Shown piece by piece: positions 3,536-45,955 of a DNA stretch of 64,000 nt (the stretch's first letter is position 1; every line of letters begins with the position of its first letter). The stretch comes from Candidatus Amesbacteria bacterium. Lineage in GTDB: Bacteria > Patescibacteriota > Microgenomatia > CAZETR01 > Amesbacteraceae. Under the pieces are notes generated by a model. The model worked only from the letters and a program-made list of their open reading frames with translations. It was not told the origin of the DNA and did no database searches. The position numbers and the translations under genes were made by a program. The stretch lies in NCBI GenBank assembly GCA_027371535.1, contig DAHXMV010000004.1:3666-67665 (forward strand). Reading direction: 5' to 3'.

Positions 3536-4063
3536 TTATTTAATTAATATGACACGATTGGGATTTTCAGGATCTTTAAAATCTAAATCGGGAGAAATAA
3601 TCGGTTGCATTAATAATTGTTTTAAAGCGATGGATAACATAGGTGAAGTTTTAAGCGTACGCATAAGCAGGGGTTTGTCTGTAGAAGCTAATTTATTTGT
3701 TAGCCGGCTGCCAATTCTGTTATTCTGGAAATCAGGGTCGACACCAACTTCTGATATGTAAAAACTTAGAGTTTCGTCCTGACGGAAATTTCTAAGTAAA
3801 ATTTTACCTTCTTTGGTATCGTATTTGGTTTCAACAAATTTTTCCCAATCAAGTTGATACCCCCAACCAAAACCAATAGGAATATTCTCTGAAATTGCCA
3901 AATATGCGACAGCTATTTTTTTGGAGAGTTCCATTGAAATATATTTCATAGCTTTTTTCTCACCTAAAGGCGGATCAAACCATGGTGAGCCTGTAAAAAC
4001 CCGGTCATATAAACCGGCAACTGATTTCAGATAGTTTTGGGAAAACTCAATAATTTCTATCAT
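3536..4063 (-). CDS. GNAT-family N-acetyltransferase (start trimmed to the first Met outside the tRNA)
   Basis: ISEVGVDPDFQNNRIGSRL resembles GNAT motif A (Q/RxxGxG/A). The 189-aa ORF runs into tRNA-His, so the start was moved to the Met at 4063. Confidence 0.45.
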   Translation of the reverse strand: MIEIIEFSQNYLKSVAGLYDRVFTGSPWFDPPLGEKKAMKYISMELSKKIAVAYLAISENIPIGFGWGYQLDWEKFVETKYDTKEGKILLRNFRQDETLSFYISEVGVDPDFQNNRIGSRLTNKLASTDKPLLMRTLKTSPMLSIALKQLLMQPIISPDLDFKDPENPNRVILIK

Positions 4064-4064
4064 A

Positions 4065-4138
4065 GGGGCGGGTGGAGGGATTCGGACCCTCGATAGTCCG
4101 CTCACAACGGACTGTGTTGCCTTTACACTACACCTGCC
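4065..4138 (-). tRNA. tRNA-His (anticodon GTG), with encoded G-1
   Basis: Manual fold of the reverse complement: G-1, acceptor GCAGGTG/CACCCGC (one A.C mismatch at 3:70), D-stem GTGT/ACAC, anticodon stem GTCCG/CGGAC with loop TTGTGAG, T-arm GAGGG-TCCGAAT-CCCTC, discriminator C73. The 3' tail is CCT, so CCA is not encoded. Confidence 0.75.
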
Positions 4139-8199: not shown

Positions 8200-8532
8200 T
8201 TAACCAATCATAAAATGTGAACCGATGTCATGAATAGCAATTGCCATAATGACAAGTAATACACAAATAAAGGTTAAGAACGTTGTTAGTAGTAAAAAAG
8301 CTTTGAAATGTTTGTTGTTTCTTTGTCGAGTAAAAAGATAAATATAAAAAGTACTTAAAAAAATGACAGGACCCGATATTGAAGCTGAAATTCGGTAAAT
8401 ATTTGCACTACCGTTATTCATTATTCCGTTGACATCTATATAACCCCAGTAGAAAAGACTAAAACCGAATAATTGGTATACAGGTATCCAGAAAGGAAAA
8501 GCCTGTTTTTTAGTCGGGGATATAATCGGCAT
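8200..8532 (-). CDS. Hypothetical AT-rich small membrane protein (3 TM), immediately adjacent to the tRNA-Leu 3' end
   Basis: About 28% GC against about 47% locally. Hydrophobic segments are present; no motif was recognised. Confidence 0.35.
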   Translation of the reverse strand: MPIISPTKKQAFPFWIPVYQLFGFSLFYWGYIDVNGIMNNGSANIYRISASISGPVIFLSTFYIYLFTRQRNNKHFKAFLLLTTFLTFICVLLVIMAIAIHDIGSHFMIG

Positions 8533-8541
8533 ATTTATTAT

Positions 8542-8626
8542 TAAAATGTGCCCAGGGTGGGAGTCGGACCCACACGAGCTTTTGGCTCATTAGTTTTTGA
8601 GACTAACGCGTATACCATTCCGCCAC
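8542..8626 (-). tRNA. tRNA-Leu (anticodon CAA), type II with a long variable arm
   Basis: Manual fold of the reverse complement: acceptor GCCCAGG/CCTGGGC, anticodon stem TTAGT/ACTAA with loop CTCAAAA, variable arm TGAGCCAAAAGCTCG, T-arm GTGGG-TCCGACT-CCCAC, discriminator A. Confidence 0.75.
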
Positions 8627-8658
8627 CTGGGCAAACTTGAAAACAATTATCCCACAGT

Positions 8659-15708: not shown

Positions 15709-16103
15709 GGGATAGAGGAGAGATAGCCCTATAGTATTATTGGTTTTTTCACGAGGTTAGGGGATAGTTTTCACATTTTATCGCGATAAATCGGCATAAA
15801 TAGCTCCAGATGATATAGTTTGATGGTAAAATATTTACACACCGGAGTAGCTGCTGATGTGGATAAGTGTCAGACGGTTAGAAGGAGTGAAGTAAGAGTA
15901 GTCAGTTATTAGTTATCAGAGTAATTAATTAAAAGTTAATAGAAGTAAATAAATAAACTAATAAACTACTAAGATTATATATTAGTATTCTGATCCTCTC
16001 TTTGTTCCGATAGATGTAATTTACATATATAAATAACTGAGTATAATATCTCTAACACTCGGTTTCTCATGTTGAGAGAAGTCTGAGCATTACAGCCAGT
16101 TAG

Positions 16104-17084
16104 ATGTACAATCATTTTATGGATGATGATAAAACAACCAAGTTTAATCGAGCCTGGTTACCCTACTTTGATGACTTCCTCCTGTATATTAAGACCCAAA
16201 ATTATTCCGAAGAAACTTTGTATAATTATGAACGGGATTTAAGATATCTGATAAACTTTCTGGATGACGAAAAACTGCACTACAAAGCCCTAAATAAACA
16301 AGTTTTTAACCGTTTCAAGGCATGGTTAATCAGCCGGGACAGAAAACTGCCGATTACGGGGCTTACAGCGGGTCGCAGCCTTGAGCCAGGCTCAATAAAC
16401 AGGTGTTTATCGTCAATCCGTACCTATTTGAGGTACCTGATAGATATAGACCAAAAAGTTCCGGTTCCCCCCGATGCCATAAAAATGGTAAAGGCCCCAA
16501 TAAAACATAAACAAGTGGCGGAATTGGACGATCTGATCCGTCTGGTTGAATCACCGGAAAAATTTGAAAAAGATGTTTTGATCGGTTTGAGAAACCGGGT
16601 GATGCTGGAAGTATTAATTTCCACCGGGATGAGAATTTCGGAGCTGGTATCACTGAATAAAAACCAACTGGACGGGACCGGCCGGTTATTTATCAGGGGT
16701 AAAGGCAAAAAAGAAAGATTTGTGTATCTGACGGATCGGGCAACCAAGTGGCTGAATCTATATCTGTCCAAGCGGGACGATACAGCCCCGGCGATGTTTG
16801 TGCCATACAGGGGACTTAACGGGGGGAAAATAACCCGAAGGGTCTCCCCTAACTATTTACAGGCAAAAATCAAGATATACAGGGAAAAGTTAAAAATAAA
16901 TGTGCCGACTTCGGCACATTCCCTGCGGCACGGATTTGCCACATACCTGGCCGAATCGGGAGCCAATCCGGCGGCAATACAGGTACTTCTGGGCCATGAG
17001 TCGCTTGATACGACTACCAGATATGTACATGCTTCTGATAAGTTTGCCGAAGAAACGCATAGAAAATTCCACCCCGTAAAATAA
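16104..17084 (+). CDS. Tyrosine site-specific recombinase/integrase (XerC/XerD family)
   Basis: N-terminal core-binding domain (LLYIKTQNYSEETLYNYERDLRYL). Catalytic region HSLRHGFATYLAESGANPAAIQVLLGHESLDTTTRYVHA shows the R..H..R..Y motif. The gene is flanked by AT-rich non-coding stretches of about 400 bp (5') and about 230 bp (3'). Confidence 0.85.
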   Translation: MYNHFMDDDKTTKFNRAWLPYFDDFLLYIKTQNYSEETLYNYERDLRYLINFLDDEKLHYKALNKQVFNRFKAWLISRDRKLPITGLTAGRSLEPGSINRCLSSIRTYLRYLIDIDQKVPVPPDAIKMVKAPIKHKQVAELDDLIRLVESPEKFEKDVLIGLRNRVMLEVLISTGMRISELVSLNKNQLDGTGRLFIRGKGKKERFVYLTDRATKWLNLYLSKRDDTAPAMFVPYRGLNGGKITRRVSPNYLQAKIKIYREKLKINVPTSAHSLRHGFATYLAESGANPAAIQVLLGHESLDTTTRYVHASDKFAEETHRKFHPVK

Positions 17085-17316
17085 TCCGGACTCCCCTACC
17101 CTCTCCCCTGCCCGTGAAAAATATATGTGTGAAAAACACCGATAAATAGGCAAATTTAGCCCCTTAACTGATGAATAGGATTAGGCAAAAAATATTTTTA
17201 TTATTTAGGCATAAACACGGTAATAAATGTCTATGTGAAGACATTATATAATTTGACAGGAGTTTTATATTTAATACAAACTACAATTATATATATCTCT
17301 GTGTAACAAAATATAA

Positions 17317-18360
17317 ATGAAAGTGACAGTAATTTATAATCAGGGCAGTCTTTTTGAGACAAATTCCGAACAGCAGATCGCCGACAGGGATACATATCTG
17401 TCGGCAAAGCAGGTTTATGACTCGTTAGTCAGAAATGGCCATACAGCCGTATTATATGAAATGCGGCCGGATAATTATGAGATGATCAGTAAAATTAAAA
17501 CCGAGGTGATTTTTAATCTCTGTGAATGGTCCGGAAGAGATTACCCACTGGCTATCAAAGTGCTGGAAATACTTGAGACCATGAATATTCCGTTTACCGG
17601 CACCAATAAAGCATCCATGAAATGGAGCGCGGATAAGGTAGTGATGAAAGGATTATTTGAAAAATACAAAATTCCCACACCGGCATATGTGATATATAAA
17701 AAAAGCCCGGGGAACAGGCCGCTTAAAAAATCGGACAGTATCCCCTACCCCCTCCTGATCAAACCGGCGCTGGAACATTGCGGAATCGGTATTCATCAGA
17801 GTTCGATCGTCCCGAATTATCGGGAACTGAAAAAGAGAGTGGCCCGACTGCGGGATTTATACAAGCAGCCGATACTGGTTGAGGAATACATTGAGGGAAG
17901 GGAAATTCAGGTGACGGTAATAAATAACGGAGAGATAAAAATTTTACCTCCGGCTGAAATTATATTCAGCGATAAGCCCGGGATGAAGAAAATATTTTCA
18001 TTTGAGAGCAAGTGGCAAAATGAGCGGGAAGAATCCAATTATGAAAAAACCATTGTGGCAAAAATGGACCGGCGGCTGAAAATTAAGATGATGAATTTAT
18101 GCAAGAAAATATATACAGAACTGAATTGCGTGGCTTATATCAGAATAGATACCCGGGTAAGGGACGGCCAAATATTTGTTCTGGAAGTAAATGTGGATCC
18201 GGGATTGGATGCGGATCCGGAATACGGGATGTATGCATCCTGTATTGCCGAGGGCTGGAGTTTTGACGGGCTGGTAGAAGAAATAGTTAAAGCAGCTTTA
18301 TTACGGTTCGATAAGGAAAATATTATCAGAAGCACTTATGAAAATAGGAATATTGTATAA
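17317..18360 (+). CDS. ATP-grasp ligase, D-Ala-D-Ala-ligase (Ddl) superfamily, non-canonical paralog 1
   Basis: The C-terminal half matches the Ddl ATP-grasp core (LVEEYIEGREIQVTVINNG...AYIRIDTRVRDGQIFVLEVNVDPGLD, cf. Ddl EEFI.GrE..v.vl......RvDf...dg.pyllEvNt.PG). The N-terminus is unlike canonical Ddl. Confidence 0.7.
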   Translation: MKVTVIYNQGSLFETNSEQQIADRDTYLSAKQVYDSLVRNGHTAVLYEMRPDNYEMISKIKTEVIFNLCEWSGRDYPLAIKVLEILETMNIPFTGTNKASMKWSADKVVMKGLFEKYKIPTPAYVIYKKSPGNRPLKKSDSIPYPLLIKPALEHCGIGIHQSSIVPNYRELKKRVARLRDLYKQPILVEEYIEGREIQVTVINNGEIKILPPAEIIFSDKPGMKKIFSFESKWQNEREESNYEKTIVAKMDRRLKIKMMNLCKKIYTELNCVAYIRIDTRVRDGQIFVLEVNVDPGLDADPEYGMYASCIAEGWSFDGLVEEIVKAALLRFDKENIIRSTYENRNIV

Positions 18361-19387
18361 CTCGCCCTCAGAGGGAGGATTTTTAAAAGAGGATGTGAAG
18401 TATGCTCAGGATGCAATTATGACTGTTAAAAGAATCCAAAAGACATTAATAAAAGGTGGGCACGAGGTAAAACTGTTTAAAATTACCATGAATAATCTGG
18501 GAAAGGAACTCAGGGAAGTGAAGGCATTTGCCGATGTGGTTTTTAATCTGACCGAGGGTGTGGGTTTAACCCTGGTGCTGGAAGTAATCAAGAAACTGGA
18601 GGATTTAAAAATTCCTTTTGCCGGGGCTACGGCATATGGCCATAAACTGACATCGGATAAAACATTAGTAAAAAAAGAATTTGTCAAATACGGTATCCCG
18701 ACTCCGGGATGGAAAGTTTATAACCGGGATAATATCAATCAAAAATGGGAATACGGTTTTCCGGCGATAGTCAAAGCCAGCACGGAACACGGCAGTATGA
18801 GTATTCATCAGGATGCGGTGGCAAAAAATAAAAAAGAGTTGGATTTAAGAATTAATTATCTGCTGGAAAAATACCAAAATCTGCCAGTGCTGGTTGAAGA
18901 GTATATATACGGCAGAGAAATTAATTCCACGGTTATCGGAAGTTATTCATGGGTAAAAAGCCTGCCTTTATCGGAGGTAGTCTTTGAAGGATTTTATAAA
19001 AATAAAGATAAATGGCCAATTTATACTTATGAAGCCAAATACGACCACGGCAGGCCGGAATTCAGAGACGCTCCGGCAAGACTAGTTGACTGGCTGACGG
19101 AAAAAGAAATCAGGGAAATAAATGGGATGACTGAAAAGATCTGCAGGGTAACAGAGTGTTTTGATTATGCACGCATTGATATCAGATATGATATAAATAA
19201 AAGAGTTCCGTATTTTATAGATTTAAACAGTTACCCGTGCCTTTTGGACGATCCGATTGCCGATACGATTACCGTATCCAGACTGGCCATGGGCTGGAAT
19301 TATTTAAAAATCCTGGAAGAAATTGCAATTTCGGGAATAAAGAGATTTAATAATATCAGTTATAAAAAATATAAAAAAATAAAATGA
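18338..19387 (+). CDS. ATP-grasp ligase, Ddl superfamily, non-canonical paralog 2 (overlaps paralog 1 by 23 nt)
   Basis: Same architecture (LVEEYIYGREINSTVIGS...ARIDIRYDINKRVPYFIDLNSYP). The two are distinct paralogs in tandem. Confidence 0.7.
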   Translation: MKIGILYNSPSEGGFLKEDVKYAQDAIMTVKRIQKTLIKGGHEVKLFKITMNNLGKELREVKAFADVVFNLTEGVGLTLVLEVIKKLEDLKIPFAGATAYGHKLTSDKTLVKKEFVKYGIPTPGWKVYNRDNINQKWEYGFPAIVKASTEHGSMSIHQDAVAKNKKELDLRINYLLEKYQNLPVLVEEYIYGREINSTVIGSYSWVKSLPLSEVVFEGFYKNKDKWPIYTYEAKYDHGRPEFRDAPARLVDWLTEKEIREINGMTEKICRVTECFDYARIDIRYDINKRVPYFIDLNSYPCLLDDPIADTITVSRLAMGWNYLKILEEIAISGIKRFNNISYKKYKKIK

Positions 19388-19767
19388 TCAGACCAAACGG
19401 TAAAGACGACGAACAATTCGGACAGGAACTGATTTTAAATTTATACGACTGCGATTTGCAGAAGATTTCCGACGGCGACCATATTAAAAATTACATCGTC
19501 AAGTTGTGCGACGAGGTGATTTTTATGAAGCGGTACGGCGAGGCCCTTATCCCGCATTTCGGACATGACAACCCGGTCACTTCGGGTTATTCGCTGGTGC
19601 AATTAATAGAAACCAGCTGCGTATCGGCACATTTTTCGGAATATAAAAAATCAGTTTATATAAACATATTTTCATGCAAGTGGTTTGATCCCCAAAAAGC
19701 CGAAGAGTTTTCCAAAAAGTGGTTCGGGGCCAATAAAACGGAAACGCATCTGTTGCAAAGATTTTAA
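19384..19767 (+). CDS. Small pyruvoyl-dependent S-adenosylmethionine decarboxylase (SpeH/class 1b AdoMetDC)-like protein
   Basis: Alignable by eye to B. subtilis SpeH over the full length (GQELILNLYDCD vs GRHVISELWGCD; SGYSLVQLIETSCVSAHFSEY vs SGVVIISESHLTIHSFPEH; IFSCKWFDP vs VYTCGDLDP). The processing-site Ser appears replaced by Thr. There is a 4-nt overlap with the upstream ATP-grasp gene. Confidence 0.6.
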   Translation: MIRPNGKDDEQFGQELILNLYDCDLQKISDGDHIKNYIVKLCDEVIFMKRYGEALIPHFGHDNPVTSGYSLVQLIETSCVSAHFSEYKKSVYINIFSCKWFDPQKAEEFSKKWFGANKTETHLLQRF

Positions 19768-20360
19768 ACTTCCGGAAGAAAAAGTCTGGCTGAAGAAGTG
19801 GTGAATTTGGGCAAGTGGGCTGATTCTTTGGCAATCACCAGCATCAGACGATTGTAATATTTACGAGCCAGTCTGAAACCGCGTTTATGATGATTATTTT
19901 TTATCCTCCGGAAATCATAGTCGTACCAAATATCAATAAAATCAGTCCACTTGTAGGATTTTTTACCGCCCCAGGAGGAATCAAATAAAACTATCCGGCT
20001 GTTGCGATTGGAGTAAGATGCCACTGAAGAGTAATGGCCGCTTTCGCCTTCTTTATCATCGGTATCAATTTCCTGGTAATTAACCATAACTGCCCGGGGG
20101 CGGTCGGGAAACGATTTGAGACCGGACTGGAGATGCTTTAAAGTGGACCATTCAATCGCCAAAACCGGATAACCCAGACGGTTGATGGCTGAAATCAGAT
20201 TTTTGACCGAAGTTCCGTTTCGGGGAGTGGTCTTACACAGGCTGATCAGCCGGTCCAAAGGGATCCGCCGGCCAAGAATATCCAGGGCGGTTTTTAAGGC
20301 CGCAGGGCCGCAGGTGTAGCCATCCGGCTGGGGGTGGGTTTTGACTTTGGATCTGCTCAT
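19764..20360 (-). CDS. Papain-fold C39-like (Peptidase_C39_2/BtrH-like) cysteine peptidase or acyltransferase
   Basis: N-terminal PQPDGYTCGPAALKTALDILG is the Cys-containing motif of C39-like domains. A downstream GHYSSV supplies a candidate His. It is convergent with the SpeH-like gene and shares its stop region. Confidence 0.5.
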   Translation of the reverse strand: MSRSKVKTHPQPDGYTCGPAALKTALDILGRRIPLDRLISLCKTTPRNGTSVKNLISAINRLGYPVLAIEWSTLKHLQSGLKSFPDRPRAVMVNYQEIDTDDKEGESGHYSSVASYSNRNSRIVLFDSSWGGKKSYKWTDFIDIWYDYDFRRIKNNHHKRGFRLARKYYNRLMLVIAKESAHLPKFTTSSARLFLPEV

Positions 20361-20410
20361 GGAAATGTCATTTTACTGCAAAGTCAAACAGTTGGAAACA
20401 ATACCCGAAG

Positions 20411-21964
20411 TTATACCGAAGGGGTGATTTTTCGGTATAAAATTGTGTGGTTTTTCAGATCAGTCATTACAATTTTCCAGTTTTCAGGAGGAATCAGTTT
20501 GGAGTCCGGATACCGCACTAATAAAAAATCATAGAGATTGAAATTAAGCGGACCCGTAATTTGCGAAATGTGAACCAGATGAATATTATCGGGCAGGTAA
20601 AATAAATTGTTGACGCCGGCAATTAACAGAGTTTTTCCGGCAGGAATATTTTCAGCCAGATAATTGCCGGTATCATAATAATCTCCGAAAGAAAAATTCA
20701 AATGACTGATTAAAAATTCCTGGCGGGTCTGTTTACCTATTATCACCGGCAAATATTTGAAATTAGCGGCGGATCTGTAAATTATAGAAAAAAGTGACAA
20801 CAACAGAGTCAGAATAATAAGAGAATATTTTAATATCAGGGGCGAGCAGGCATTGATTATAAATACCGTTAATAAAGAAAAGGCAGGCAAGAAAGGTAAA
20901 AACAAACGGCCTTCTCCCTGGTGGGGGGTAATAAACCAGGCAATTAATGATAAGCCGCAATATAAAAATATCAGCCGCACTCCCCTACTCTTTTCCCGGA
21001 CTGATCTGAGAAAAAGCAATGGTGCGGAAATTATATACACCGGTGAAATCGGATCCGGCGCTTGTGTAAACAGAATCCAAAAATCCCGCAAATCAAATTT
21101 AATCAGTGTATTCAGATAAGGTTGCGAAAAGACGGGATAAAAAGGATTTCCGGTAGTCAGCCAGGAGAAAAGCCACCAGGGCAGCGGAACCAGCAGGCAA
21201 AAAAAAGTAAAACGAAAAAGTTCCGAAAGGGATTTTTTTCGAAAAAGTAACAGAATAAGAAATACCGGCAGACCGGTGAGGGAAAGAAATTTTACAGTTA
21301 TTGCCAGTCCTAACGTAATGCTTGCAGCCACGGGTTTATTATCGAATAACAATTTGAGAGCTAATATTTCAAAAAATGTCCTGGCGAGGTCTACATAGGC
21401 GGTGACAGATTCCCAACCAACTACCAAATTGGTGTAAAAAAGCACCAGCACTAACAGGGACATAAACCTTCCGAGAAATTTACGGCTTAATCCGTACAGA
21501 GGAATGAGAATCAAAAGGCCGAAACAGAAATGGATTAATTTGGCCCATATTTCATTTCCCAAAGATAAAGCAACGGCGTATAAGGGCTCAATTAATTTGG
21601 GCATCACGGAGTATTCAAAAACCGATCCGGGGATATATCTGATAGAGTGTTCTGCCAGCCAGATTTTTGGCAGGGTGAGATGGTACCACAAGGCGTCGAA
21701 ACCGATTTCCGGTCCCAGGGCACCAAGAATATTTATTACAGCCGCGGCCAAAAGCAGTATGACCAACAACCACTCCCTTTTTCGGAGTCTCATTTCAGGC
21801 AGGGAAATTTTATTGTGGAAATAGAAAACGACCAAAAATAACCAGGAAGCAGTCAATCCGATCAGATTTTTTGAGGTTAACCAGCCGAATACTCCCAGTC
21901 CGAATACGGTATAGGATAGAATGGCTAATAACAGGCTTAGAGCAAACATAAATGCTGTCTGCAA
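20411..21964 (-). CDS. GT-C fold membrane glycosyltransferase (ArnT/PMT-like, GT39/GT83-type), 13 or more TM
   Basis: The first extracytoplasmic loop, PEIGFDALWYHLTLPKIW, resembles the DE/DxxxY-type loop motif of the dolichyl/undecaprenyl-phosphate-sugar transferases. Hydropathy is consistent. Confidence 0.45.
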   Translation of the reverse strand: MQTAFMFALSLLLAILSYTVFGLGVFGWLTSKNLIGLTASWLFLVVFYFHNKISLPEMRLRKREWLLVILLLAAAVINILGALGPEIGFDALWYHLTLPKIWLAEHSIRYIPGSVFEYSVMPKLIEPLYAVALSLGNEIWAKLIHFCFGLLILIPLYGLSRKFLGRFMSLLVLVLFYTNLVVGWESVTAYVDLARTFFEILALKLLFDNKPVAASITLGLAITVKFLSLTGLPVFLILLLFRKKSLSELFRFTFFCLLVPLPWWLFSWLTTGNPFYPVFSQPYLNTLIKFDLRDFWILFTQAPDPISPVYIISAPLLFLRSVREKSRGVRLIFLYCGLSLIAWFITPHQGEGRLFLPFLPAFSLLTVFIINACSPLILKYSLIILTLLLSLFSIIYRSAANFKYLPVIIGKQTRQEFLISHLNFSFGDYYDTGNYLAENIPAGKTLLIAGVNNLFYLPDNIHLVHISQITGPLNFNLYDFLLVRYPDSKLIPPENWKIVMTDLKNHTILYRKITPSV

Positions 21965-34373: not shown

Positions 34374-35432
34374 ATGACCATACAACAAATGCTGACATAT
34401 ATTATTGAACACCGGGGTTCGGACCTGCATCTGGTACCCGGTCACCCGCCGCTGATCAGGATTGACGGAATTCTGCTGCCGATTGCCGGCCAAAAAGTGC
34501 TCGGGGCGACGGAAGTGGAACAACTGATTTCCGGGGTGATGTCCGCGGAACAGAAACAGATGTTTATCGTGAACAAAGAACTGGATTTTTCGTTTTCATA
34601 CGGCGAGGATGCCAGGTACAGGGTGAATTCATATTTCCAGAAAGGGGTGATGGCAGCCAGCTTCAGGTTAATTTTATCGAAAATTCCGGAGATTGATGAG
34701 CTGGGTTTGCCGCGGATCTGCCATGAGTTTGCGACCCTGAGACAGGGTTTTGTGCTGGTAACCGGGCCGACCGGACAAGGGAAGTCCACCACTCTGGCCT
34801 CGGTACTGCAGGAGATTAATAACACCCGCCCGGTGCACATCATTACTATCGAAGACCCGATTGAATATATATATGCCCCATCCAAGGCAATAATCTCTCA
34901 AAGGGAGGTGCATAATGACACCCATTCGTGGGAACTGGCTCTGCGGTCTGTCCTGCGCGAAGATCCTGATGTAGTCCTGATAGGGGAAATGCGGGATTAT
35001 GAGACGATCGCGGCGGCTCTGACAATTGCGGAAACGGGCCATCTGGTGTTTGCCACCCTGCATACCAATTCAGCGGCGCAGACAATCGACCGTATCGTGG
35101 ACGTTTTTCCGGAAAATCAGCAGCCGCAGGTACGGATGCAGTTATCCGCCAATCTGGAAGCCGTGCTATCCCAGAGGTTATTGCCCAGAAAAAGCGGCGG
35201 CCGGGTGGTGGGCTATGAAATTATGGTAGGAACAGCCGCAGTCAGGACATCCATCAGGGAAGGCCGGACGCATATGATCGATAACATTATTCAGACTTCG
35301 GCAGAATACGGGATGAAGACCCTGGAATCAACCCTGGGGGAATTGGTCAATTCCGGAGTGATCGCCAGGGAAACGGCCGAGGCATATGCTACCCGTCCCG
35401 AGGATATCAAGCGTTACATAAAAGGAGCTTAA
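34374..35432 (+). CDS. pilT: Twitching-motility retraction ATPase PilT
   Basis: Walker A GPTGQGKSTTLASVL, IITIEDPIEY and GEMRD motifs. 352 aa. Confidence 0.9.
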   Translation: MTIQQMLTYIIEHRGSDLHLVPGHPPLIRIDGILLPIAGQKVLGATEVEQLISGVMSAEQKQMFIVNKELDFSFSYGEDARYRVNSYFQKGVMAASFRLILSKIPEIDELGLPRICHEFATLRQGFVLVTGPTGQGKSTTLASVLQEINNTRPVHIITIEDPIEYIYAPSKAIISQREVHNDTHSWELALRSVLREDPDVVLIGEMRDYETIAAALTIAETGHLVFATLHTNSAAQTIDRIVDVFPENQQPQVRMQLSANLEAVLSQRLLPRKSGGRVVGYEIMVGTAAVRTSIREGRTHMIDNIIQTSAEYGMKTLESTLGELVNSGVIARETAEAYATRPEDIKRYIKGA

Positions 35433-35433
35433 A

Positions 35434-36636
35434 GTGAGGATTAAATATTCGGCCAAGGATAACTCCGGCAGGAATATAAAGGGATTTGTGGAGGCGGCAA
35501 ATGTTCATGCAGCGGCGGGGATATTAAGGGAGCAAAAAATGCTGCCGATTGAAATGCAGGAAGTTAAAAAAGGCCTAAACCTATCCGTTTTTATGGATAA
35601 CCTAAAAGGGGTGTCTTCAAAAGAACTGACTAATTTTACGAGACAGCTGGCGACGATGATGACTGCCGGGTTGCCCCTGACCGACGCGTTAAACTTGCTA
35701 AAAGCCCAGTCACCACCCGTACTATCGGGAATTGTCGGAATGGTGCTGGTGGATGTGCAATCAGGAGTTGCTTTGTCTGCAGCGCTGGGAAAATTCCCGA
35801 AAGTATTTAACCGGATTTACGTTTCGCTGGTAAAAGCGGGTGAATCCGCAGGACTGATGGAAAAGATCCTGAACCGGCTGGCGGATACGGCAGAGAAAAA
35901 CCAGGAGTTTAAAGGCAAAATAATAGGCGCCATGATTTACCCGATAATTATTCTGGTGGGTATGGTGCTGGTGTTTATATTGATGATTGTATTAGTTGTA
36001 CCGCAAATGAAATCAATGTATGCGGATTTAAATTCCGAGCTGCCGTTTGCCACCAGAGCGTTGATAGCAATTTCAGATTTTTCTGTTAATAACGGGCCAT
36101 TAATAATTATCGCCCTGGTCGGAATATTTTTCGGGATCCGTTCATACGTCCAGACGGATAAAGGCAGGGAGAACGCAGCCAGGTTGAAATTTGCCTTTCC
36201 TTTAATAGGTTCATTGTTGCGCCAATCCGCAATGGCCGAATTTTCTCGGGTGATGTCACTATTATTATCCGCCGGAATTTCGATAGTCGAATCACTGAGA
36301 ATTTCTGCCGATTCAGCGGGAAATATAGTCATGGTAAATGACATCAAAAAAATTGCCAATCAGGTGGAAAAAGGTTTCCCGGTCTCAATTTGTTTTTCGG
36401 AGAGCGAGACGTTTCCGCCAATATTCGGGCAAATGGTAGCTGTCGGCGAGGAAACCGGAAAGATGGACGATGTAATGAATAAGCTGTCGTATTATTTTGA
36501 AACGGAATCAGACCAGAGGGTCAAAGGCTTGACAACCGCTATTGAACCGATAATACTAATTGTAATGGCAGTCGGAGTAGGACTTTTGATGTATGCAATT
36601 ATCATGCCGATGTACGGAGTTATGAATAAAGTTTAG
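35434..36636 (+). CDS. pilC: Type IV pilus inner-membrane platform protein PilC (GspF family)
   Basis: Two T2SSF repeats (LATMMTAGLPLTDAL... and LSLLLSAGISIVESL...). 400 aa. Confidence 0.85.
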   Translation: MRIKYSAKDNSGRNIKGFVEAANVHAAAGILREQKMLPIEMQEVKKGLNLSVFMDNLKGVSSKELTNFTRQLATMMTAGLPLTDALNLLKAQSPPVLSGIVGMVLVDVQSGVALSAALGKFPKVFNRIYVSLVKAGESAGLMEKILNRLADTAEKNQEFKGKIIGAMIYPIIILVGMVLVFILMIVLVVPQMKSMYADLNSELPFATRALIAISDFSVNNGPLIIIALVGIFFGIRSYVQTDKGRENAARLKFAFPLIGSLLRQSAMAEFSRVMSLLLSAGISIVESLRISADSAGNIVMVNDIKKIANQVEKGFPVSICFSESETFPPIFGQMVAVGEETGKMDDVMNKLSYYFETESDQRVKGLTTAIEPIILIVMAVGVGLLMYAIIMPMYGVMNKV

Positions 36637-36668
36637 TTTCCCTGGAAGGAGGTGAAATAACCGAAAAT

Positions 36669-37127
36669 ATGTTAAAAAGAGCATTCACATTAATAGAGCT
36701 TTTGGTAGTTATTGGTATACTGGCTGTCCTAATGGCCGGTGTTGTGGCGTTAATCGATCCGGTTGACAAAAACAGAGCGGCCAATGATGCCCAAATGCAA
36801 TCGTTGGTTGCCAACGCAGCCACGGCTGAAGAGTCATATGCGGCTACCCATAACGGTTGTTATGCGAGGACATGGGCGAACCTGAATACTGCAGGAGAAT
36901 TAAAAACCGCTACCCCAAATATTCCTTCTACAGGTGGTTATGTAGCTCCTACGTTTACCATAGGTGCAGTTGCAACCTGTACTAACGCAAACGAAACAGA
37001 TTCGATAAACGTTTGTGCTAATTTGAAGTCAAAGAGGTACACTGGCCCGGCTACCCCGAATTGGCATTATGATTCCATTTCCGGAAAGACATGTGCCACC
37101 GTAAATTGTACAGATGCGTGTCCGTGA
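36669..37127 (+). CDS. pilA: Type IV major pilin (PilA-like), class III signal peptide
   Basis: MLKRAFTLIELLVVIGILAVL. Glu at +5. A C-terminal Cys pair is present. Ala, not Gly, precedes the Phe. Confidence 0.8.
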   Translation: MLKRAFTLIELLVVIGILAVLMAGVVALIDPVDKNRAANDAQMQSLVANAATAEESYAATHNGCYARTWANLNTAGELKTATPNIPSTGGYVAPTFTIGAVATCTNANETDSINVCANLKSKRYTGPATPNWHYDSISGKTCATVNCTDACP

Positions 37128-37154
37128 TGGTTTGAAAGTACTTTCAGACACAAC

Positions 37155-37187
37155 AATCCCGCCCCAAACGGCGGGATTGTTTTTTTG
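37155..37187 (+). terminator. Rho-independent terminator after pilA
   Basis: AATCCCGCC-CCAAAC-GGCGGGATT hairpin followed by GTTTTTTT. Confidence 0.75.
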
Positions 37188-37211
37188 GTAGTATATTAAA
37201 AGAATTGATTT

Positions 37212-37952
37212 ATGAACGGGCTTATTTATGCAATTGTTTTTTGTTACGGAATAATCATGGGGAGTGCGGCCAATGCGCTGATTGACCGTTTGCCCAAAGG
37301 AAAATCCTGGTTTAAGGGCAGGTCGGAATGTGATAAATGCCATCACCAACTTAAATTTGGGGATCTGATTCCGGTGTTTTCCTACCTCTATTTGAAAGGG
37401 AAATGCGGGTATTGCCACTCACCTATTCCGGTAAGAAACCTGATAGTCGAGATAATAACGGGATTGGCATTCATTGTTATTCTTGGTCATTCATGGTCAT
37501 ACAGTAGTTTATTGTTAGCAGGGATTGCTTGGGTGACGGTGATAATTGCGTTCATGGATTGGGAGACGAAGCTGGTCAGCGAGGCGATGGTGGTGATATG
37601 GGGTGTGCTGGCACTTTTGGGTAATTGGGGAAATTTGGGCAATTTGGGAAATTGGGGCGGATTGTTAATCGGGGTGGGGGTGATTGGCGGAATATGGCTG
37701 GTGACAAGGGGACGGGCCATGGGCGAGGGAGATATAGAAATTGCCGCAGTCATGGGCTGGTGGCTGGGATGGGCAAATACCCCCGTGGCTTTGTGGCTGG
37801 CATTTGTACTGGGATCAGTGGTCGGAGTGTGGAAACTGGCGAAAAAGAAAAGTCATTTAAAAGACCAAATAGCATTCGGGCCGTTTTTGGTATTGGGCAG
37901 CTGGATAGCCTATTGGTGGGGGGAAAAGATCTGGGCTTTCATAGTAAAATAG
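37212..37952 (+). CDS. pilD: Prepilin peptidase PilD (A24 family), with an internal 9-nt tandem-repeat-encoded GNWGNLGNLGNWG loop
   Basis: N-terminal Zn-binding CDKCHH...CGYCH tetracysteine and two catalytic Asp regions (IAFMDWETK, GEGDIEIAAV). Confidence 0.85.
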   Translation: MNGLIYAIVFCYGIIMGSAANALIDRLPKGKSWFKGRSECDKCHHQLKFGDLIPVFSYLYLKGKCGYCHSPIPVRNLIVEIITGLAFIVILGHSWSYSSLLLAGIAWVTVIIAFMDWETKLVSEAMVVIWGVLALLGNWGNLGNLGNWGGLLIGVGVIGGIWLVTRGRAMGEGDIEIAAVMGWWLGWANTPVALWLAFVLGSVVGVWKLAKKKSHLKDQIAFGPFLVLGSWIAYWWGEKIWAFIVK

Positions 37953-37956
37953 AGGG

Positions 37957-38445
37957 GTGGAAAAGTTTTCCGTGTTGGCGTGGAGTAGAAAAGAAATATC
38001 GTTTGTGACGGCGATTATTACCCTGGTATTCGGATTATCATGGTATCAGATAATAATCGGAGAGATGAAGACCAGGGATTCACAGAGGATGCAGGATGTG
38101 GAGGCTATCAGCCGGGCGATCAGGACTTATTGGGATGATTATAAGGTCTATCCCGAGGAGGCTACAGGAGAGGGAAAAATGGTCCAATGCGGCGAAAAGG
38201 GCGGTCAGGTATGTGAATGGGGTAAAAGCACCATCAGGGATAAATATAATGTAGTGTATATGAATCTGGTGCCCGGCGATCCCCTGACGAGCAAAGGTTA
38301 CCATTACGTTTACATTCCGGATGCCGAAAGACAGCATTTCAGGATTTACATTGCCCTGGAATACGATGGCGATGCGAGGGTAAAACCTGATTTGACAATC
38401 CAGTGCGGAAACCGTGTACAATGTAATTGGTATGTACAGGAATGA
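37957..38445 (+). CDS. GspG-like pseudopilin-fold protein with a non-canonical N-terminus (GTG start)
   Basis: EAISRAIRTYWDDYKVYPE matches the GspG signature (I..A...Y..d.g.YP). There is a hydrophobic N-terminal helix but no G-F-T-L-I-E cleavage motif. Confidence 0.4.
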   Translation: MEKFSVLAWSRKEISFVTAIITLVFGLSWYQIIIGEMKTRDSQRMQDVEAISRAIRTYWDDYKVYPEEATGEGKMVQCGEKGGQVCEWGKSTIRDKYNVVYMNLVPGDPLTSKGYHYVYIPDAERQHFRIYIALEYDGDARVKPDLTIQCGNRVQCNWYVQE

Positions 38446-38836
38446 ACCTCAGGGATTTACTTTAATAGAATTAGTAATAACCATGGGTTTAATAGCAATT
38501 TTGTCGGCGGGGACGTTGTCTGTTTTGGGTCAGGGACCGCAAAAATATGCCAGAGATTCAAGACGAAAGGCTGACCTGCAGTCAATTGCTTCCGCTCTGG
38601 AATTATACAGGAACGACCATAGCGGTTATCCAATTGCCGGAAACTATCCCTCGGGAATTCAGGGGACTTATATGAATACCATTCCGAAAGATCCCAAAAA
38701 AAGTACATTGGACTATGCTTATACCCCCGGAAATTGCGGTCCGACATATTGTTCGACTTTCAGTATTTGTACTAATAGTTCACAACCCCCTGAATCTTAC
38801 GGAGAGCCGCTCCAGTACTGTGTTTATAACCCATGA
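38432..38836 (+). CDS. Type IV pilin/pseudopilin (GspG-like)
   Basis: Class III signal QGFTLIELVITMGLIAIL plus LELYRNDHSGYP. The start is ambiguous (38414 or 38432). Confidence 0.65.
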   Translation: MYRNEPQGFTLIELVITMGLIAILSAGTLSVLGQGPQKYARDSRRKADLQSIASALELYRNDHSGYPIAGNYPSGIQGTYMNTIPKDPKKSTLDYAYTPGNCGPTYCSTFSICTNSSQPPESYGEPLQYCVYNP

Positions 38837-39402
38837 AGAAAGCCTATACGTTATTGGAAATAGTCCTGGCAATAGGTTTAACGGTAGTCATGTCCGGATC
38901 TGCAATTGCAGCGTATGTTAAATACAACAGATCACAAATGGTCAATTCAGCATATCAGGAAATTATGAATGTTTTCAGGGAAGCCAGAACTAATGCCATG
39001 ACCGGTAAAATGGATTGTAACCAGTGCGATTGTGACGGCAGCGGAGCTCATCCGGCCTTTAACGGGTGGATGGTCTATATAGATTGTTCAAAAAAACACA
39101 CGAATGGCAATAATAATGTCGGGTATGAAATAGAAGGTGAATGCCAGGGACCGCCGGGGAGTCCGCCGATGTTTGGATACCGGTCAAAATATTTTTCCAA
39201 AATAGATATCCGGATTAATGATTTCGGCCCCGTTAATCTAGCCCAATGCAACGCCAACAACAATAACAATGTCCGGTACTTATCGGGTGGAACGGGGGTG
39301 TCTTTTGCTACCGGAACATCGCTGGTGATTAAGCTTAGATCCCAGTTTGACAATTCAATAATCAAAACAATTAATGTGGATTCATCAGGAGTAGTGCACT
39401 GA
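38833..39402 (+). CDS. Minor pilin/pseudopilin with a Cys-rich insert
   Basis: MKKAYTLLEIVLAIGLTVVM prepilin-like leader with A-Y instead of G-F. Also CNQCDCDGSG. Confidence 0.55.
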   Translation: MKKAYTLLEIVLAIGLTVVMSGSAIAAYVKYNRSQMVNSAYQEIMNVFREARTNAMTGKMDCNQCDCDGSGAHPAFNGWMVYIDCSKKHTNGNNNVGYEIEGECQGPPGSPPMFGYRSKYFSKIDIRINDFGPVNLAQCNANNNNNVRYLSGGTGVSFATGTSLVIKLRSQFDNSIIKTINVDSSGVVH

Positions 39403-39407
39403 TTAAT

Positions 39408-39878
39408 ATGGGGAAATCCGGCTTTAAAAAAGGTCAAATACTGTTAGAAACTTTAATTGCGTTTTCAATTGCCGTTGTGGTGCTAATAGCGGTGATGAAT
39501 CTGGCTACCAGATCTGTGAATAATTCCGGTGTATCAGACAGAACCAGTGAAGCCACGTCATATGCCGATCAGGGTATAAACTGGGTCAAAAGCCAGGTGG
39601 TGCTATCATGGTCGGACTTTAATGATTCATTTACATCGGGGAGCCACTATTGCCTGCAGACATTATCCAATTGGACACCATCGCCGACTCCGGCTGCGGG
39701 TTCCTGCGGTACGGGGCAAGAAATATCAGGAACACAATTTTTCAGGGAGGCAGTATTGTTTAAATTAACTGACTCAAACTTAAGGAATTATATTGAAGCT
39801 ACGGTAACAGTTACCTGGACTGAAGGCATGAACACAAAAACCGTATCCAGATACGGAGTGTATTACAACAATACATAG
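39408..39878 (+). CDS. Minor pilin/pseudopilin
   Basis: MGKSGFKKGQILLETLIAFSIAVVVL: Glu at +5 after G-Q. Confidence 0.5.
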   Translation: MGKSGFKKGQILLETLIAFSIAVVVLIAVMNLATRSVNNSGVSDRTSEATSYADQGINWVKSQVVLSWSDFNDSFTSGSHYCLQTLSNWTPSPTPAAGSCGTGQEISGTQFFREAVLFKLTDSNLRNYIEATVTVTWTEGMNTKTVSRYGVYYNNT

Positions 39879-39881
39879 GAG

Positions 39882-40388
39882 ATGATTAAAAAAGGTTTTT
39901 CACTGATCGAAATACTATTGGGGATATCGTTATTTATTATTATGTCCGCAACTGCCGGAGCAGTACTTGTGAATTCTCTTAGAAGCGCACGCAAAGCTTC
40001 GGCGACAACTCTGGCCAAAAATGAAGGGCAGTATGCCCTGAAAACTATACAGCAGGCAATTTTATTTGCGGCAGATGCGACGTGCGTTTCGGGGACAACG
40101 CTGAATTATCATGTGGAGAATGATCCTACAAACACTTTACACACTTATTCCCTTAACGGGGCGGCTATCCGGGCGGACGGAAATCCGATGACTTCGACCA
40201 GTGTGTCTATCGCCCAGGGATCATGCACCAATGTGTTCACCTGTTCGACAAACGGCAGTGGTTTTGTGACCACAGTGGAAATTTGCTTTGTAATTAACAA
40301 TGCCAACGGAATTGATGTTTCAGATACAGCTGGTATTTCGGGATTAAAGTTTGACACACTGGCGACGCTATTAAATACGAAAAATTAG
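39882..40388 (+). CDS. Minor pilin/pseudopilin
   Basis: MIKKGFSLIEILLGISLFII canonical prepilin leader. Confidence 0.6.
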   Translation: MIKKGFSLIEILLGISLFIIMSATAGAVLVNSLRSARKASATTLAKNEGQYALKTIQQAILFAADATCVSGTTLNYHVENDPTNTLHTYSLNGAAIRADGNPMTSTSVSIAQGSCTNVFTCSTNGSGFVTTVEICFVINNANGIDVSDTAGISGLKFDTLATLLNTKN

Positions 40389-40435
40389 GGTTGGAAATTG
40401 CATAAAGATGTGCGATAGTTATAATAAATAAAGAT

Positions 40436-41269
40436 ATGAAATCGGGGCAGGTGCTGATAATTACTTTGTTGGTTTTAAGCGTGGTGGCTACAGTCGCCAT
40501 GTCGATTGCTTCCAGAAGCGTGACGGAGGTGCAGGTATCGACGACACAGGATGAATCTTCCAGGGCGCTGGATGCGGCAGAAGTGGGACTGGAAAAATTT
40601 TTAAGTGTGACGGGAGTACCTTCAACCGGAATTTCTTCAACCAGTGTGAACAGTATTAATGCCAGCTATACAATTCCGGCACCAACGGGTTTGGGAAATT
40701 CATCTTCGTTTGATGTCCCCTACTCTCTGGATGAAGGCGATGTGGCGACGGTGGATTTACCGGCAAATCCCGGGACTTCAGTCAAAGTCTGTTGGAATGG
40801 CGGTACCGGAGCAACTTCGTCTAAAGTGGAAGTGGCATTTTTTTATCAGGATAGAGCGCATAAAGTATATGTAAAAAGAATGGGTTATGACCCTGTAGCA
40901 AGCGGCAATAATTTTATTACTTCAGGGGTAGTGACTTCATCAGCAACCTGCGGATCTACCAGTTATAGTTTTTCAAAAACAATACAACTGAATAACGATA
41001 ACCCGCCGGGGAGCGGGAATATGAATTTAGGTTTGCCAACAAATTCGACCATATTTATGCGGATCAGGATGTTGGGTAACAGTTCCACTGGTCCCCAAAA
41101 TGTGGGGGTGGCACTGAGCGGGGTAAATTTACCGCAGCAGGGAGGAATAGTTGAGGCGGTGGGAGTTGCCGGTTCGACATCACAAAGAGTCAGGGCGACA
41201 GTCAGTTACTATGATCTGCCGACAATGTTTGACAGTGCCATTTTTTCCGGAGGACAGATAGTTAAATGA
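40436..41269 (+). CDS. PilX-like minor pilin (PilX_N domain)
   Basis: MKSGQVLIITLLVLSVVATVAMSIASRS...ALDAAEVGLE resembles the PilX N-terminal domain. Confidence 0.5.
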   Translation: MKSGQVLIITLLVLSVVATVAMSIASRSVTEVQVSTTQDESSRALDAAEVGLEKFLSVTGVPSTGISSTSVNSINASYTIPAPTGLGNSSSFDVPYSLDEGDVATVDLPANPGTSVKVCWNGGTGATSSKVEVAFFYQDRAHKVYVKRMGYDPVASGNNFITSGVVTSSATCGSTSYSFSKTIQLNNDNPPGSGNMNLGLPTNSTIFMRIRMLGNSSTGPQNVGVALSGVNLPQQGGIVEAVGVAGSTSQRVRATVSYYDLPTMFDSAIFSGGQIVK

Positions 41270-41286
41270 ACTTTTCGATATAGATT

Positions 41287-42309: not shown

Positions 42310-42824
42310 TAAATTTTGTCATCAAAGAGGACAAGAGCGGACAGATAATAGATCAGGTTAAACGGGTAGTCACGGTAATTACTTCCGTGGTACTGATAGT
42401 TTATATCGTGGTAGCAGCGGGAGTAATCGGCTGGATGGTATGGGAGAATTCCCGGGCGAAAAAAACCACTGTGGATACCAGTGATGTAATAAAACAGATT
42501 CAGGATTTATCGGCAAAAGAGATAGTAATAAGGAATTTAGCCGACCGGGCCAATCTGGTGGAAAGTTTTTTGGGCGAACGCGGTGATTCATCCCAGTCGG
42601 CATATTTGCTGGGTTCACCGGGAAACAAAATTGTGAGTTGGAATTATGTTTTGGGAGGAGCGGAAGTAGTGAGTGTAGCCGCCAGCCAACCGGCAGAGCT
42701 GAAAGTTTATATGGATTACCTGGGCGAAAAATACGTGCAGGTCAGAACTGAAAAAGTGGAGTGGACACCTGAGAATGGATGGAAAGGGATATTTGACGTA
42801 ACGAGAAAGAAAGGGGCCACATGA
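42306..42824 (+). CDS. PilN-like bitopic membrane protein
   Basis: Single TM after a short cytoplasmic N-terminus, in the pilM-pilN-pilO position, with a 4-nt overlap with pilM. Confidence 0.5.
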   Translation: MINFVIKEDKSGQIIDQVKRVVTVITSVVLIVYIVVAAGVIGWMVWENSRAKKTTVDTSDVIKQIQDLSAKEIVIRNLADRANLVESFLGERGDSSQSAYLLGSPGNKIVSWNYVLGGAEVVSVAASQPAELKVYMDYLGEKYVQVRTEKVEWTPENGWKGIFDVTRKKGAT

Positions 42825-45756: not shown

Positions 45757-45955
45757 CAATGTATTATGCGTCGATGTATCGACGCATAATTTTGTTTTAA
45801 GGAGTTTTGTCGGTTATGACCAAACCGTTTCTGAAATGCATAGGTATAGTCTGTCATGACCTTAAATTGATTGATAAAAGTTTGGGGCGTTTTTTGGGAT
45901 TTATAAAATAAATAAAATATTTCATTTATTAACTTGTGTAACTATAATAATCATA

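Follow-up and report, generated by a model that had tools for sequence, protein, structure and literature searches.

The window analysed here is a 64,000-nt stretch of contig DAHXMV010000004.1 (assembly GCA_027371535.1) from Candidatus Amesbacteria, a lineage of the candidate phyla radiation (CPR); all coordinates refer to this window. Between positions 15709 and 21964 it carries genes for a tyrosine recombinase (Int), two ATP-grasp ligases related to D-alanine-D-alanine ligase (Ddl) and named AG1 and AG2, a 127-aa predicted decarboxylase of the SpeDC type, a protein resembling C39 peptidases and a membrane protein of the GT39 type. An original prediction, made from the sequence, had described this set as an integrase-associated cassette for a pathway that ligates, decarboxylates and transfers its substrate. 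The observation itself was confirmed, and its first interpretation is partly supported. The features of the region are as follows.

15709-16103, AT-rich spacer to the left of the recombinase gene, 395 bp, 32.9% GC
16104-17084, + strand, tyrosine recombinase (Int), Pfam Phage_integrase 112.7 bits
17085-17316, AT-rich spacer between the recombinase gene and AG1, 232 bp, 31.0% GC; presumed promoter region of the operon and right-hand edge of the exchanged block described below
17317-18360, + strand, AG1, Ddl-like ATP-grasp protein, Pfam Dala_Dala_lig_C 99.3 bits
18338-19387, + strand, AG2, second Ddl-like ATP-grasp protein, Pfam Dala_Dala_lig_C 55.0 bits
19384-19767, + strand, SpeDC-type protein, 127 aa, Pfam AdoMet_dc 58.4 bits
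19764-20360, - strand, C39-like protein, 198 aa, Pfam Peptidase_C39 39.3 bits and C39_2 26.8 bits
20411-21964, - strand, GT39-type membrane protein, 517 aa, homologues carry PMT_2/PMT

All six open reading frames (ORFs), their overlaps and the AT-rich spacers were found as predicted. AG1 and AG2 overlap by 23 nt and AG2 and the SpeDC gene by 4 nt, and translational coupling of the AG1-AG2-SpeDC operon is supported. The C39-like gene does converge on the SpeDC stop codon, with another overlap of 4 nt, and its C39 domain was confirmed by Pfam. SIMPL, gyrA and hppA are the next genes downstream of the block and the GT39 gene. The gene order in Amesbacteria-type loci is Na/H exchanger, LytR_C, YebC, DUF5656, recombinase, ligases, SpeDC, (C39), (GT39), SIMPL and gyrA, the members in brackets not being present throughout.

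Homologous loci and contigs retrieved for comparison are labelled with L-numbers (L004, L091 etc.). A SpeDC-anchored scan with one genome per species found the subfamily in at least 575 species, and the best 80 loci were retrieved; a C39-anchored metagenome scan combined with six-frame profile searches yielded 29 loci with sufficient flank.

Classification of the decarboxylase

SpeDC is a single clade of homologues of S-adenosylmethionine decarboxylase (AdoMetDC) which decarboxylates L-ornithine only and is inactive on arginine and lysine (Li, Liang, Phillips, Michael, J Biol Chem 2023; PMC10407285). Its members, some of them from the candidate phyla radiation, keep the processing Ser, His and Cys, are diagnosed by a Gln, a Thr, a Phe and a Tyr, and have lost the AdoMetDC proline (PMC10407285). 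The 127-aa protein, previously labelled SpeH-like, does possess the AdoMet_dc domain, but belongs to the SpeDC clade and not to SpeH. Its motif GYSLVQLIETSCVSAHFSEYKKSVYINIFSC holds the processing residues Ser78, His83 and Cys98, which are invariant in 27 homologues and correspond to S63, H68 and C83 of T. maritima. The invariant core of the family reads GYSLVQLIETS-V-AHFSE-K--Y-N-FSC, with 65-90% identity over the 27 aligned homologues. The diagnostic Gln, Thr, Phe and Tyr are present at inferred positions, and the AdoMetDC proline is replaced by Ser (HFSE in place of H(T/S)WPE). The pattern LVQLIETS..HF..VYIN is common to the window protein and the assayed SpeD2 ornithine decarboxylase (ODC) modules (Fig. 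S5, PMC10407285), two of which show the motif FSLVQLIETSLVSGHFANCSNGAYIDIFSC in the supplementary alignment. Identity is 43% to the assayed Omnitrophica SpeD2 ODC module and 46% to a homologue in a metagenome-assembled genome (MAG) of Anaerolinea thermophila, the assayed protein in the paper being that of A. thermophila UNI-1 (PMC10407285). By its membership in this clade, the 127-aa protein is a predicted pyruvoyl L-ornithine decarboxylase, i.e., an enzyme of a known kind that makes putrescine from free ornithine.

A bona fide AdoMetDC (SpeH or SpeD) was considered and rejected: the score against the AdoMetDC equivalog TIGR03330 is 28.7 bits (cut-off 75.65), the proline is changed to Ser, and the block is without speE. 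A search of solved structures with the single sequence of the 127-aa protein gave no AdoMetDC match. SpeDC was discovered through its pattern of adjacency to speD and speE, and the published speDC clusters are those with speD/speE, casdh/casdc or hss (PMC10407285). It is only at non-CPR loci that the same subfamily adjoins true speD and speE; in the CPR block there is no speE. The window gene is instead the last cistron after two ATP-grasp ligases, a context unmentioned in PMC10407285 (0 occurrences of 'ATP-grasp'), so that proximity to ATP-grasp or Fem-like enzymes provides a new genomic context for this recently found decarboxylase.

A different neighbour was seen at 39 of 79 SpeDC loci, mostly in Gottesmanbacteria records (e.g., L028:3022-3930, and 38 others among L007-L086): a secreted GDSL/SGNH hydrolase of about 303 aa on the same strand, starting about 23 nt past the SpeDC stop codon. 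Beyond the hydrolase gene, these loci also encode a secreted protein of about 176 aa, which is conserved.

The ATP-grasp ligases

Both AG1 and AG2 match Pfam Dala_Dala_lig_C and ATP-grasp_3, and their top solved-structure matches are all Ddl; the Pfam search gave no Dala_Dala_lig_N match for either. Against the Ddl models NCBIfam NF002378 and TIGR01205, with cut-offs of 243 and 245.65 bits, AG1 scores 132.9 and 119.6 bits and AG2 85.3 and 77.6 bits. Ddl enzymes (Ddl/VanA family) are the closest relatives in sequence and structure, and share the catalytic ATP-grasp residues: in an alignment with E. coli DdlB the residues for ATP, Mg and acyl-phosphate are kept (K97, K144, E180, R255, D257, E/D270 and N272). 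The positions that bind D-Ala are altered, E15 being absent, H63 replaced by E, and S281/L282 changed in both proteins. S150 is Cys in AG1 and Cys or Gly across the pair, Y216 is Trp in AG1 and retained as Tyr in AG2, and AG2 further shows E270 to D and G276 to C. A conserved FNLxE motif stands where Ddl has its HG motif. The two ligases are about 30% identical to each other. With scores far under the cut-offs and D-Ala-binding residues replaced, the expectation that they are not housekeeping Ddl holds; both are predicted to be amide ligases other than D-Ala-D-Ala ligases, and would represent a large uncharacterised Ddl-like branch without D-Ala binding.

AG1 evolves very fast. The window copy is 49% identical to its closest relative and 33-39% to all other Amesbacteria, most of which are 41-57% identical among themselves; in the same comparisons GyrA is 77-91%, SpeDC 55-85% and C39 51-89% identical, and where the window AG1 is 33-49% identical GyrA is at 80-87%. 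Syntenic AG1 copies at 33-57% identity are far too divergent for a housekeeping enzyme, and the extreme divergence, together with the lost D-Ala residues, weighs against such a role for AG1. The AG2 slot is occupied by two deeply different ATP-grasp types. The subtype of the window is rare (58% identical to L091/L092, 71% to L178), and most relatives carry the other type, AG2', to which the window AG2 is only 32-37% identical in other Amesbacteria.

Gene content in related genomes

The gene co-occurrence check bore out the arrangement AG1-AG2-SpeDC, which is conserved across Amesbacteria. Among the best 80 SpeDC loci an ATP-grasp gene adjoins in only nine, i.e., seven Amesbacteria-type loci (L007-L012, L014), the related L065, and L032 from another lineage of Patescibacteria. 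The order is permuted to AG-SpeDC-AG in L009. In L032 two ATP-grasp genes flank SpeDC, accompanied by an LD-carboxypeptidase, a weak MurL-like match and a SpeE-like protein; in L065 a FemAB-like GNAT gene overlaps and precedes AG1; in L132 an alanine racemase adjoins C39-AG1-AGc. The closest relatives of the window, L177 and L178 (SpeDC 90%, AG2 71%, GyrA 87% identical), have no C39 gene, and GT39 converges directly on SpeDC. The type-A loci L105, L106, L107 and L118 have AG1 and AG2' without SpeDC. A sister lineage (GyrA about 60% identical; 13 flanked loci, about 25 in all) shows recombinase-AG1 converging on C39-SIMPL, with the recombinase gene overlapping AG1. AG1 is the near-constant member of the set, and AG2, SpeDC, C39 and GT39 are gained or lost.

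Outside these lineages, L083:9902-13871, L085:9293-13189 and L086:9878-13851 share a four-gene arrangement of SpeDC, GNAT, ATP-grasp and a gene resembling decarboxylases dependent on pyridoxal phosphate (PLP). The GNAT is of the Acetyltransf_6 type, FemAB/LPG-synthase-like, and of the same family as that in L065; the ATP-grasp protein (ATP-grasp_4 and LAL_C2) is of the L-amino-acid-ligase type, and the PLP gene is Orn/DAP/Arg decarboxylase-like. L083 and L085 are Desulfobacterales-like and L086 is an unclassified MAG. L083 has a gene for a sigma-54 activator upstream of the set, and N-terminal similarity indicates another in L085. The arrangement looks like an undescribed operon for putrescine or ornithine conjugates.

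Distant AG1/AG2 homologues on Bacteroidota-like and other contigs accompany enzymes for other amine building blocks, and are linked to lysine/glutamate 2,3-aminomutases of the KamA family: L171:3871-7742 shows AG-AG-GNAT-lysine 2,3-aminomutase with tandem ATP-grasp genes, L173:3398-6011 a single ATP-grasp gene, and L176:299-4100 aminomutase-ATP-grasp and ATP-grasp-GNAT fusions, with genes for a deoxyhypusine-synthase-like protein and a pyruvoyl arginine decarboxylase (PvlArgDC) at a distance of about 1.3 kb. In contig_55612 (L004/L008) AG1, gyrA and hppA are each fragmented, which looks like frameshift sequencing error and not like real pseudogenes.

Block replacement between strains

Across gyrA, SIMPL and GT39, a stretch of 6.97 kb, the two haplotype contigs L091 and L103 share 99.5-100% identity, with a full 100% in GT39. 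DNA identity drops sharply to about 50% at a point about 95 nt inside C39, and it stays low through SpeDC, AG2 and AG1. The L091 junction recurs at 99.5% in L092, which comes from another sample, and the L103 junction in L143; just past the start of AG1, the identity between L092 and L103 is back at 90.6%. Because of these junctions, confirmed by the independent assemblies L092 and L143, the exchanged unit is C39-SpeDC-AG2-AG1 (about 17317-20360 in the window), with GT39 and the recombinase gene outside. The L091-type block, which resembles that of the window, has a GC content of 38-44%, and the alternative block, set in the same background, has 42-53%; this fits import from a relative of lower GC. 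Recombination in the conserved flanks accounts for the exchange; no att sites were found. The term cassette therefore remains apt in the population-genetic sense, but the borders and the mechanism differ from those originally proposed, and the GT-C gene assigned to it lies outside the block and is adjacent in only 6 of the 29 C39-anchored loci. This whole-block allelic replacement is a clean natural example from an uncultivated lineage.

At 20395-20456 an inverted repeat, imperfect and 26 nt long with a loop of 10 nt, was noted across the GT39 stop codon and the spacer between GT39 and C39, about 100 bp from the equivalent of the left L091/L103 breakpoint. It may simply be a terminator.

The C39-like protein and the membrane protein

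Peptidase_C39 matches the 198-aa protein above its cut-off of 22 bits, and Gln11, Cys17, His109 and Asp127 are conserved. As no hydrophobic segment or signal peptide is present, the protein is described as a predicted cytoplasmic papain-fold cysteine peptidase, amidase or transferase. Its N-terminus weakly matches a PHROG endolysin family. In 27 of the 29 C39-anchored loci a Ddl-like ATP-grasp gene converges on C39, and SpeDC is present in 11. C39 is absent in L011 and L012 as well as in L177/L178; it is an optional member of the block, and its proposed place as an integral part of the system is not supported, given its absence from the closest relatives. No ABC exporter or conserved small ORF was found near C39 in the window or in related loci.

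Longer C39-like proteins (about 280 aa, YPQPD-x-CGPFALKHAL) are divergently paired with a Ddl-like ATP-grasp gene in L088:6055-8044 and L089:6004-8068; both loci are Ignavibacteria-like, and NCBI assigns the ATP-grasp protein of L089 to Ignavibacterium sp. Most other members of this C39b family stand directly upstream of hslV-hslU-like genes (judged from N-terminal sequence only) without a ligase, and the pairing of C39b with ATP-grasp is consequently not universal outside Microgenomates.

The 517-aa membrane protein had been described as a GT-C glycosyltransferase with 13 transmembrane segments. It has no direct Pfam or NCBIfam match (Pfam even at E<=10), and at least nine hydrophobic segments. 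Its homologues (40-48% identity, 87-98% coverage; 4788 representatives in the family) carry PF13231/PF02366 (PMT_2/PMT) and are named GT39. The GT-C assignment is a putative one, made transitively through these homologues.

Recombinase and base composition

The recombinase is the sole tyrosine recombinase in the window and has the catalytic R/K/HxxR/H/Y. Its best-scoring models are XerC (182 bits) and XerD (171 bits), both below the cut-offs. A promoter-like site lies upstream at 16020-16047. The gene is syntenic in all type-A Amesbacteria loci (71-81% identical) and stands outside the exchanged block; the search for direct repeats as att sites returned short repeats of low identity, none of which bracket the region. 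The window contains three tRNAs, the nearest 7 kb off, and no other RNA family; no tRNA target lies near the region. The integrase association was accordingly abandoned: the region is a strain-variable chromosomal block, not a mobile element.

Three further candidates were tried and rejected, namely an integron (62.4 bits against the integron-integrase model with a cut-off of 265, and higher scores for the XerC and XerD models), a dif site or terminus served by the recombinase (GC skew positive throughout the region, without sign change) and an anti-phage defence system (no PADLOC match for any of seven proteins).

The gap between the recombinase gene and AG1 is empty in the window and holds variable small genes in relatives (L014:6875-7796, L009:6812-8752, L106:9479-10836), mostly judged by their N-termini: an 82-aa and 217-aa pair, the latter with a ribbon-helix-helix-like N-terminus; an MFS transporter (Pfam MFS_1 in the syntenic L004) with a 215-aa protein; and an IS200-like transposase N-terminus with a 193-aa protein. 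Next to the exchanged block, the gap thus forms another variable site.

The GC content is 43.6% for the recombinase gene, 41.5% for AG1, 37.8% for AG2 (z = -2.6; the lowest in the block), 41.4% for SpeDC, where GC3 is nevertheless normal, 47.4% for C39 and 40.6% for GT39, as compared with 50.1% for gyrA, 50.6% for hppA and a window mean of 45.9%. The dip from about 50% to about 38-40% GC noted originally is thus real, but moderate, patchy and less pronounced than first stated, with C39 not low at all, and the window has dips as deep or deeper at 3.5-4.1 kb, 8.2-8.5 kb and 45.3-46.4 kb.

Proposed pathway

The region is tentatively read as a strain-variable chromosomal block with a pathway for amino-acid-putrescine (or peptide) amide conjugates, a reading for which the case falls a little short of probable. 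We infer the substrates, the order of the steps and the role of the C39-like protein as follows. SpeDC would decarboxylate free L-ornithine to putrescine, as expected from the assayed clade. AG1 and AG2 would then form one or two amide bonds via acyl-phosphate, most likely between amino-acid carboxylates and putrescine or a peptide amine, e.g., that of a cell-wall stem peptide, which would yield an aminoacyl- or dipeptidyl-diamine; the earlier guess of an aminoacyl-polyamine product was judged reasonable. Where present, the C39-like enzyme with its Cys-His-Asp residues might hydrolyse or transfer the amide, by analogy with glutathionylspermidine amidase and phytochelatin synthase.

Similar logic is known from phevamine A (Phe-Val-amidinospermidine), whose synthesis takes an amidinotransferase and two ATP-grasp ligases (PMC6187163). 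The hsvABC genes of Pseudomonas syringae may thus be an analogue in combining an enzyme that prepares a polyamine with two tandem ATP-grasp ligases, but differ in that the amidinotransferase acts on spermidine, no peptidase partner is present and the host is a plant pathogen. Glutathionylspermidine synthetase/amidase pairs an ATP-grasp polyamine-amide ligase with a cysteine amidase of the papain-like CHAP type for the reverse reaction; there, both activities reside in one protein, the amidase is CHAP and not C39-like, and the acyl donor is glutathione. Iyer, Abhiman, Burroughs and Aravind, writing in Mol Biosyst in 2009, reportedly predicted systems of ATP-grasp enzymes with papain-like peptidases by comparative genomics. 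The present block likewise places uncharacterised ATP-grasp genes beside one for a papain-fold protein, as do L088 and L089; to our knowledge, neither a SpeDC member nor strain-level block replacement formed part of that description.

A connection of SpeDC with the ligases is favoured by the coupling of the operon, the joint replacement of the four genes and the contexts in L009, L032, L065 and L083/L085/L086, so that SpeDC stands beside amide-forming enzymes of the ATP-grasp or GNAT type in at least three unrelated arrangements. The linkage of distant AG1/AG2 homologues with other amine-building-block enzymes in L171 and L176 also counts in favour of the reading. Several observations weigh against the amide-conjugate pathway. 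SpeDC is accessory, the sister lineage having AG1 and C39 only and L105, L106, L107 and L118 having no SpeDC. About 65 of the 80 species representatives have SpeDC, 60-70% identical to the window copy, with no ATP-grasp or C39 gene nearby, and it could therefore be a plain housekeeping source of putrescine. C39 is missing in the nearest relatives (L177/L178). The LdcA and weak MurL-like genes of L032, the alanine racemase of L132 and the FemAB-like GNAT of L065 hint at peptidoglycan precursors and not at a free metabolite. Finally, a canonical Ddl was found neither in the window nor in the retrieved loci, to which the search extended.

Block replacement and the fast divergence of AG1 point to strain-specific product chemistry under diversifying selection. 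A bolder version of the amide-conjugate reading, rather unlikely as it stands, is that of a specificity cassette, in which a co-adapted recombining block would provide every Amesbacteria strain with an amino-acid-putrescine conjugate of its own, either wall-attached or released, and selection by hosts, phages or competitors would maintain the diversity of the block. If true, this would be a counterpart of O-antigen or cross-bridge variation built on polyamines, in a CPR lineage that is episymbiotic, and the first physiological role of SpeDC putrescine beyond bulk polyamine supply.

Alternative explanations

The main rival overlaps with the amide-conjugate pathway but names a specific acceptor: AG1 and AG2 would tailor peptidoglycan precursors by attaching putrescine, or the amino acids of side chains or cross-bridges, to UDP-MurNAc-peptide in the cytoplasm, the C39-like protein would trim or recycle stem peptides, and replacement between strains would diversify the wall against lytic enzymes and phages. 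Enterococcal D-aspartate ligase adds D-Asp in a like manner, and putrescine-linked peptidoglycan is also known. The Ddl enzymes as nearest structural and sequence relatives argue for this explanation, as do, in L032, a muramoyltetrapeptide carboxypeptidase (112.8 bits) and the weak MurL-like protein (24 bits) between the two ATP-grasp genes and SpeDC, the FemAB-like GNAT over AG1 in L065, the alanine racemase by C39-AG1-AGc in L132, the endolysin match of the C39 N-terminus, the envelope neighbours SIMPL and GT39, and a hypervariability that suits a surface structure. However, each supporting neighbour is confined to one lineage, the MurL and endolysin matches are weak, C39 has no signal peptide and the block no mur genes, and this explanation is considered somewhat unlikely. 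It is improbable that no pathway exists at all and that SpeDC is a housekeeping putrescine source co-transcribed with unrelated ligases, with C39, GT39 and the recombinase gene being neighbours by descent in a recombination-prone region. Operons of small genomes do combine unrelated genes, most Patescibacteria have SpeDC on its own, and SpeDC, AG2, C39 and GT39 are each dispensable across loci; the joint replacement of four genes with sharp boundaries, the recurrence of SpeDC beside amide-forming enzymes and the translational nature of the overlaps speak against mere proximity.

Modification of a ribosomal peptide or protein, in which the ATP-grasp enzymes would install a cross-link or tag (graspetide- or RimK-like) and C39 would remove a leader or tag, is very unlikely. 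C39 peptidases cut double-glycine leaders, hypervariable loci are typical for bacteriocins, and graspetide loci do occur in CPR bacteria (PMC8939145), but the ligases are of the three-domain Ddl type with Ddl models as the best match, neither a conserved adjacent small ORF nor an ABC transporter is present, and cluster 23, TPR and SPASM, the partners described for CPR graspetide loci, are absent. A search of the AT-rich spacers for precursor peptides gave no credible small ORF, and the overlap of the recombinase gene with AG1 in the sister lineage leaves no space for one. As to the integrase island modelled on the butirosin AHBA side chain, in which glutamate would be ligated, the adduct decarboxylated and the product transferred by a BtrH-like protein to a GT-C-made glycan, the likeness of the parts (ATP-grasp, decarboxylase, C39/BtrH clan) is superficial and the GC content is indeed under that of gyrA and hppA. 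The analogy failed on several points: the block has no ORF for a carrier protein, the window protein has no BtrH_N match, and the clade of the decarboxylase was assayed on free L-ornithine and proved inactive on arginine and lysine. That it should act on a ligated adduct is further disfavoured by its conserved SpeDC type and by its occurrence without ATP-grasp or C39 genes nearby in most representatives. With C39 and GT39 dispensable, GT39 and the recombinase outside the exchanged block, the recombinase syntenic in all relatives and neither att repeats nor a tRNA target, the butirosin-like island is extremely improbable.

The families of the parts are known, and SpeDC has been characterised previously; the gene combination, its recurrence with other amide-forming enzymes and the block replacement between strains appear to be new. 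No description of this gene combination was found in the literature, of which the coverage was incomplete. CPR genomes are tiny and have few biosynthetic pathways, so that an ATP-spending amide operon beside a putrescine-forming enzyme, both conserved and variable between strains, is likely to matter for the lifestyle. As the three cytoplasmic enzymes are small, soluble and expressible in E. coli, the product should be directly findable.

Other features of the window

Three low-GC patches at 3536-4105, 8200-8532 and 45298-46390 (32-38% GC, z = -2.5 to -4.4) contain short ORFs and deviate in composition more than the block studied here; two of them adjoin tRNA genes (His 4065-4137, Leu 8548-8632). 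The GC skew of the + strand is positive in nearly all 1-kb bins across the window (1-64000), regardless of gene orientation, and the cumulative skew climbs steadily to 8.1. An unusual strand compositional disparity has been reported for a complete Microgenomates genome (PMC7143001), and the two may be one phenomenon. At 34374-43513, a long run of genes on the same strand includes prepilin-type N-termini (FTLIELLVV-type) and N-termini resembling PilT/PilB-like ATPases; these N-terminal sequences alone suggest a type IV pilus or competence cluster.

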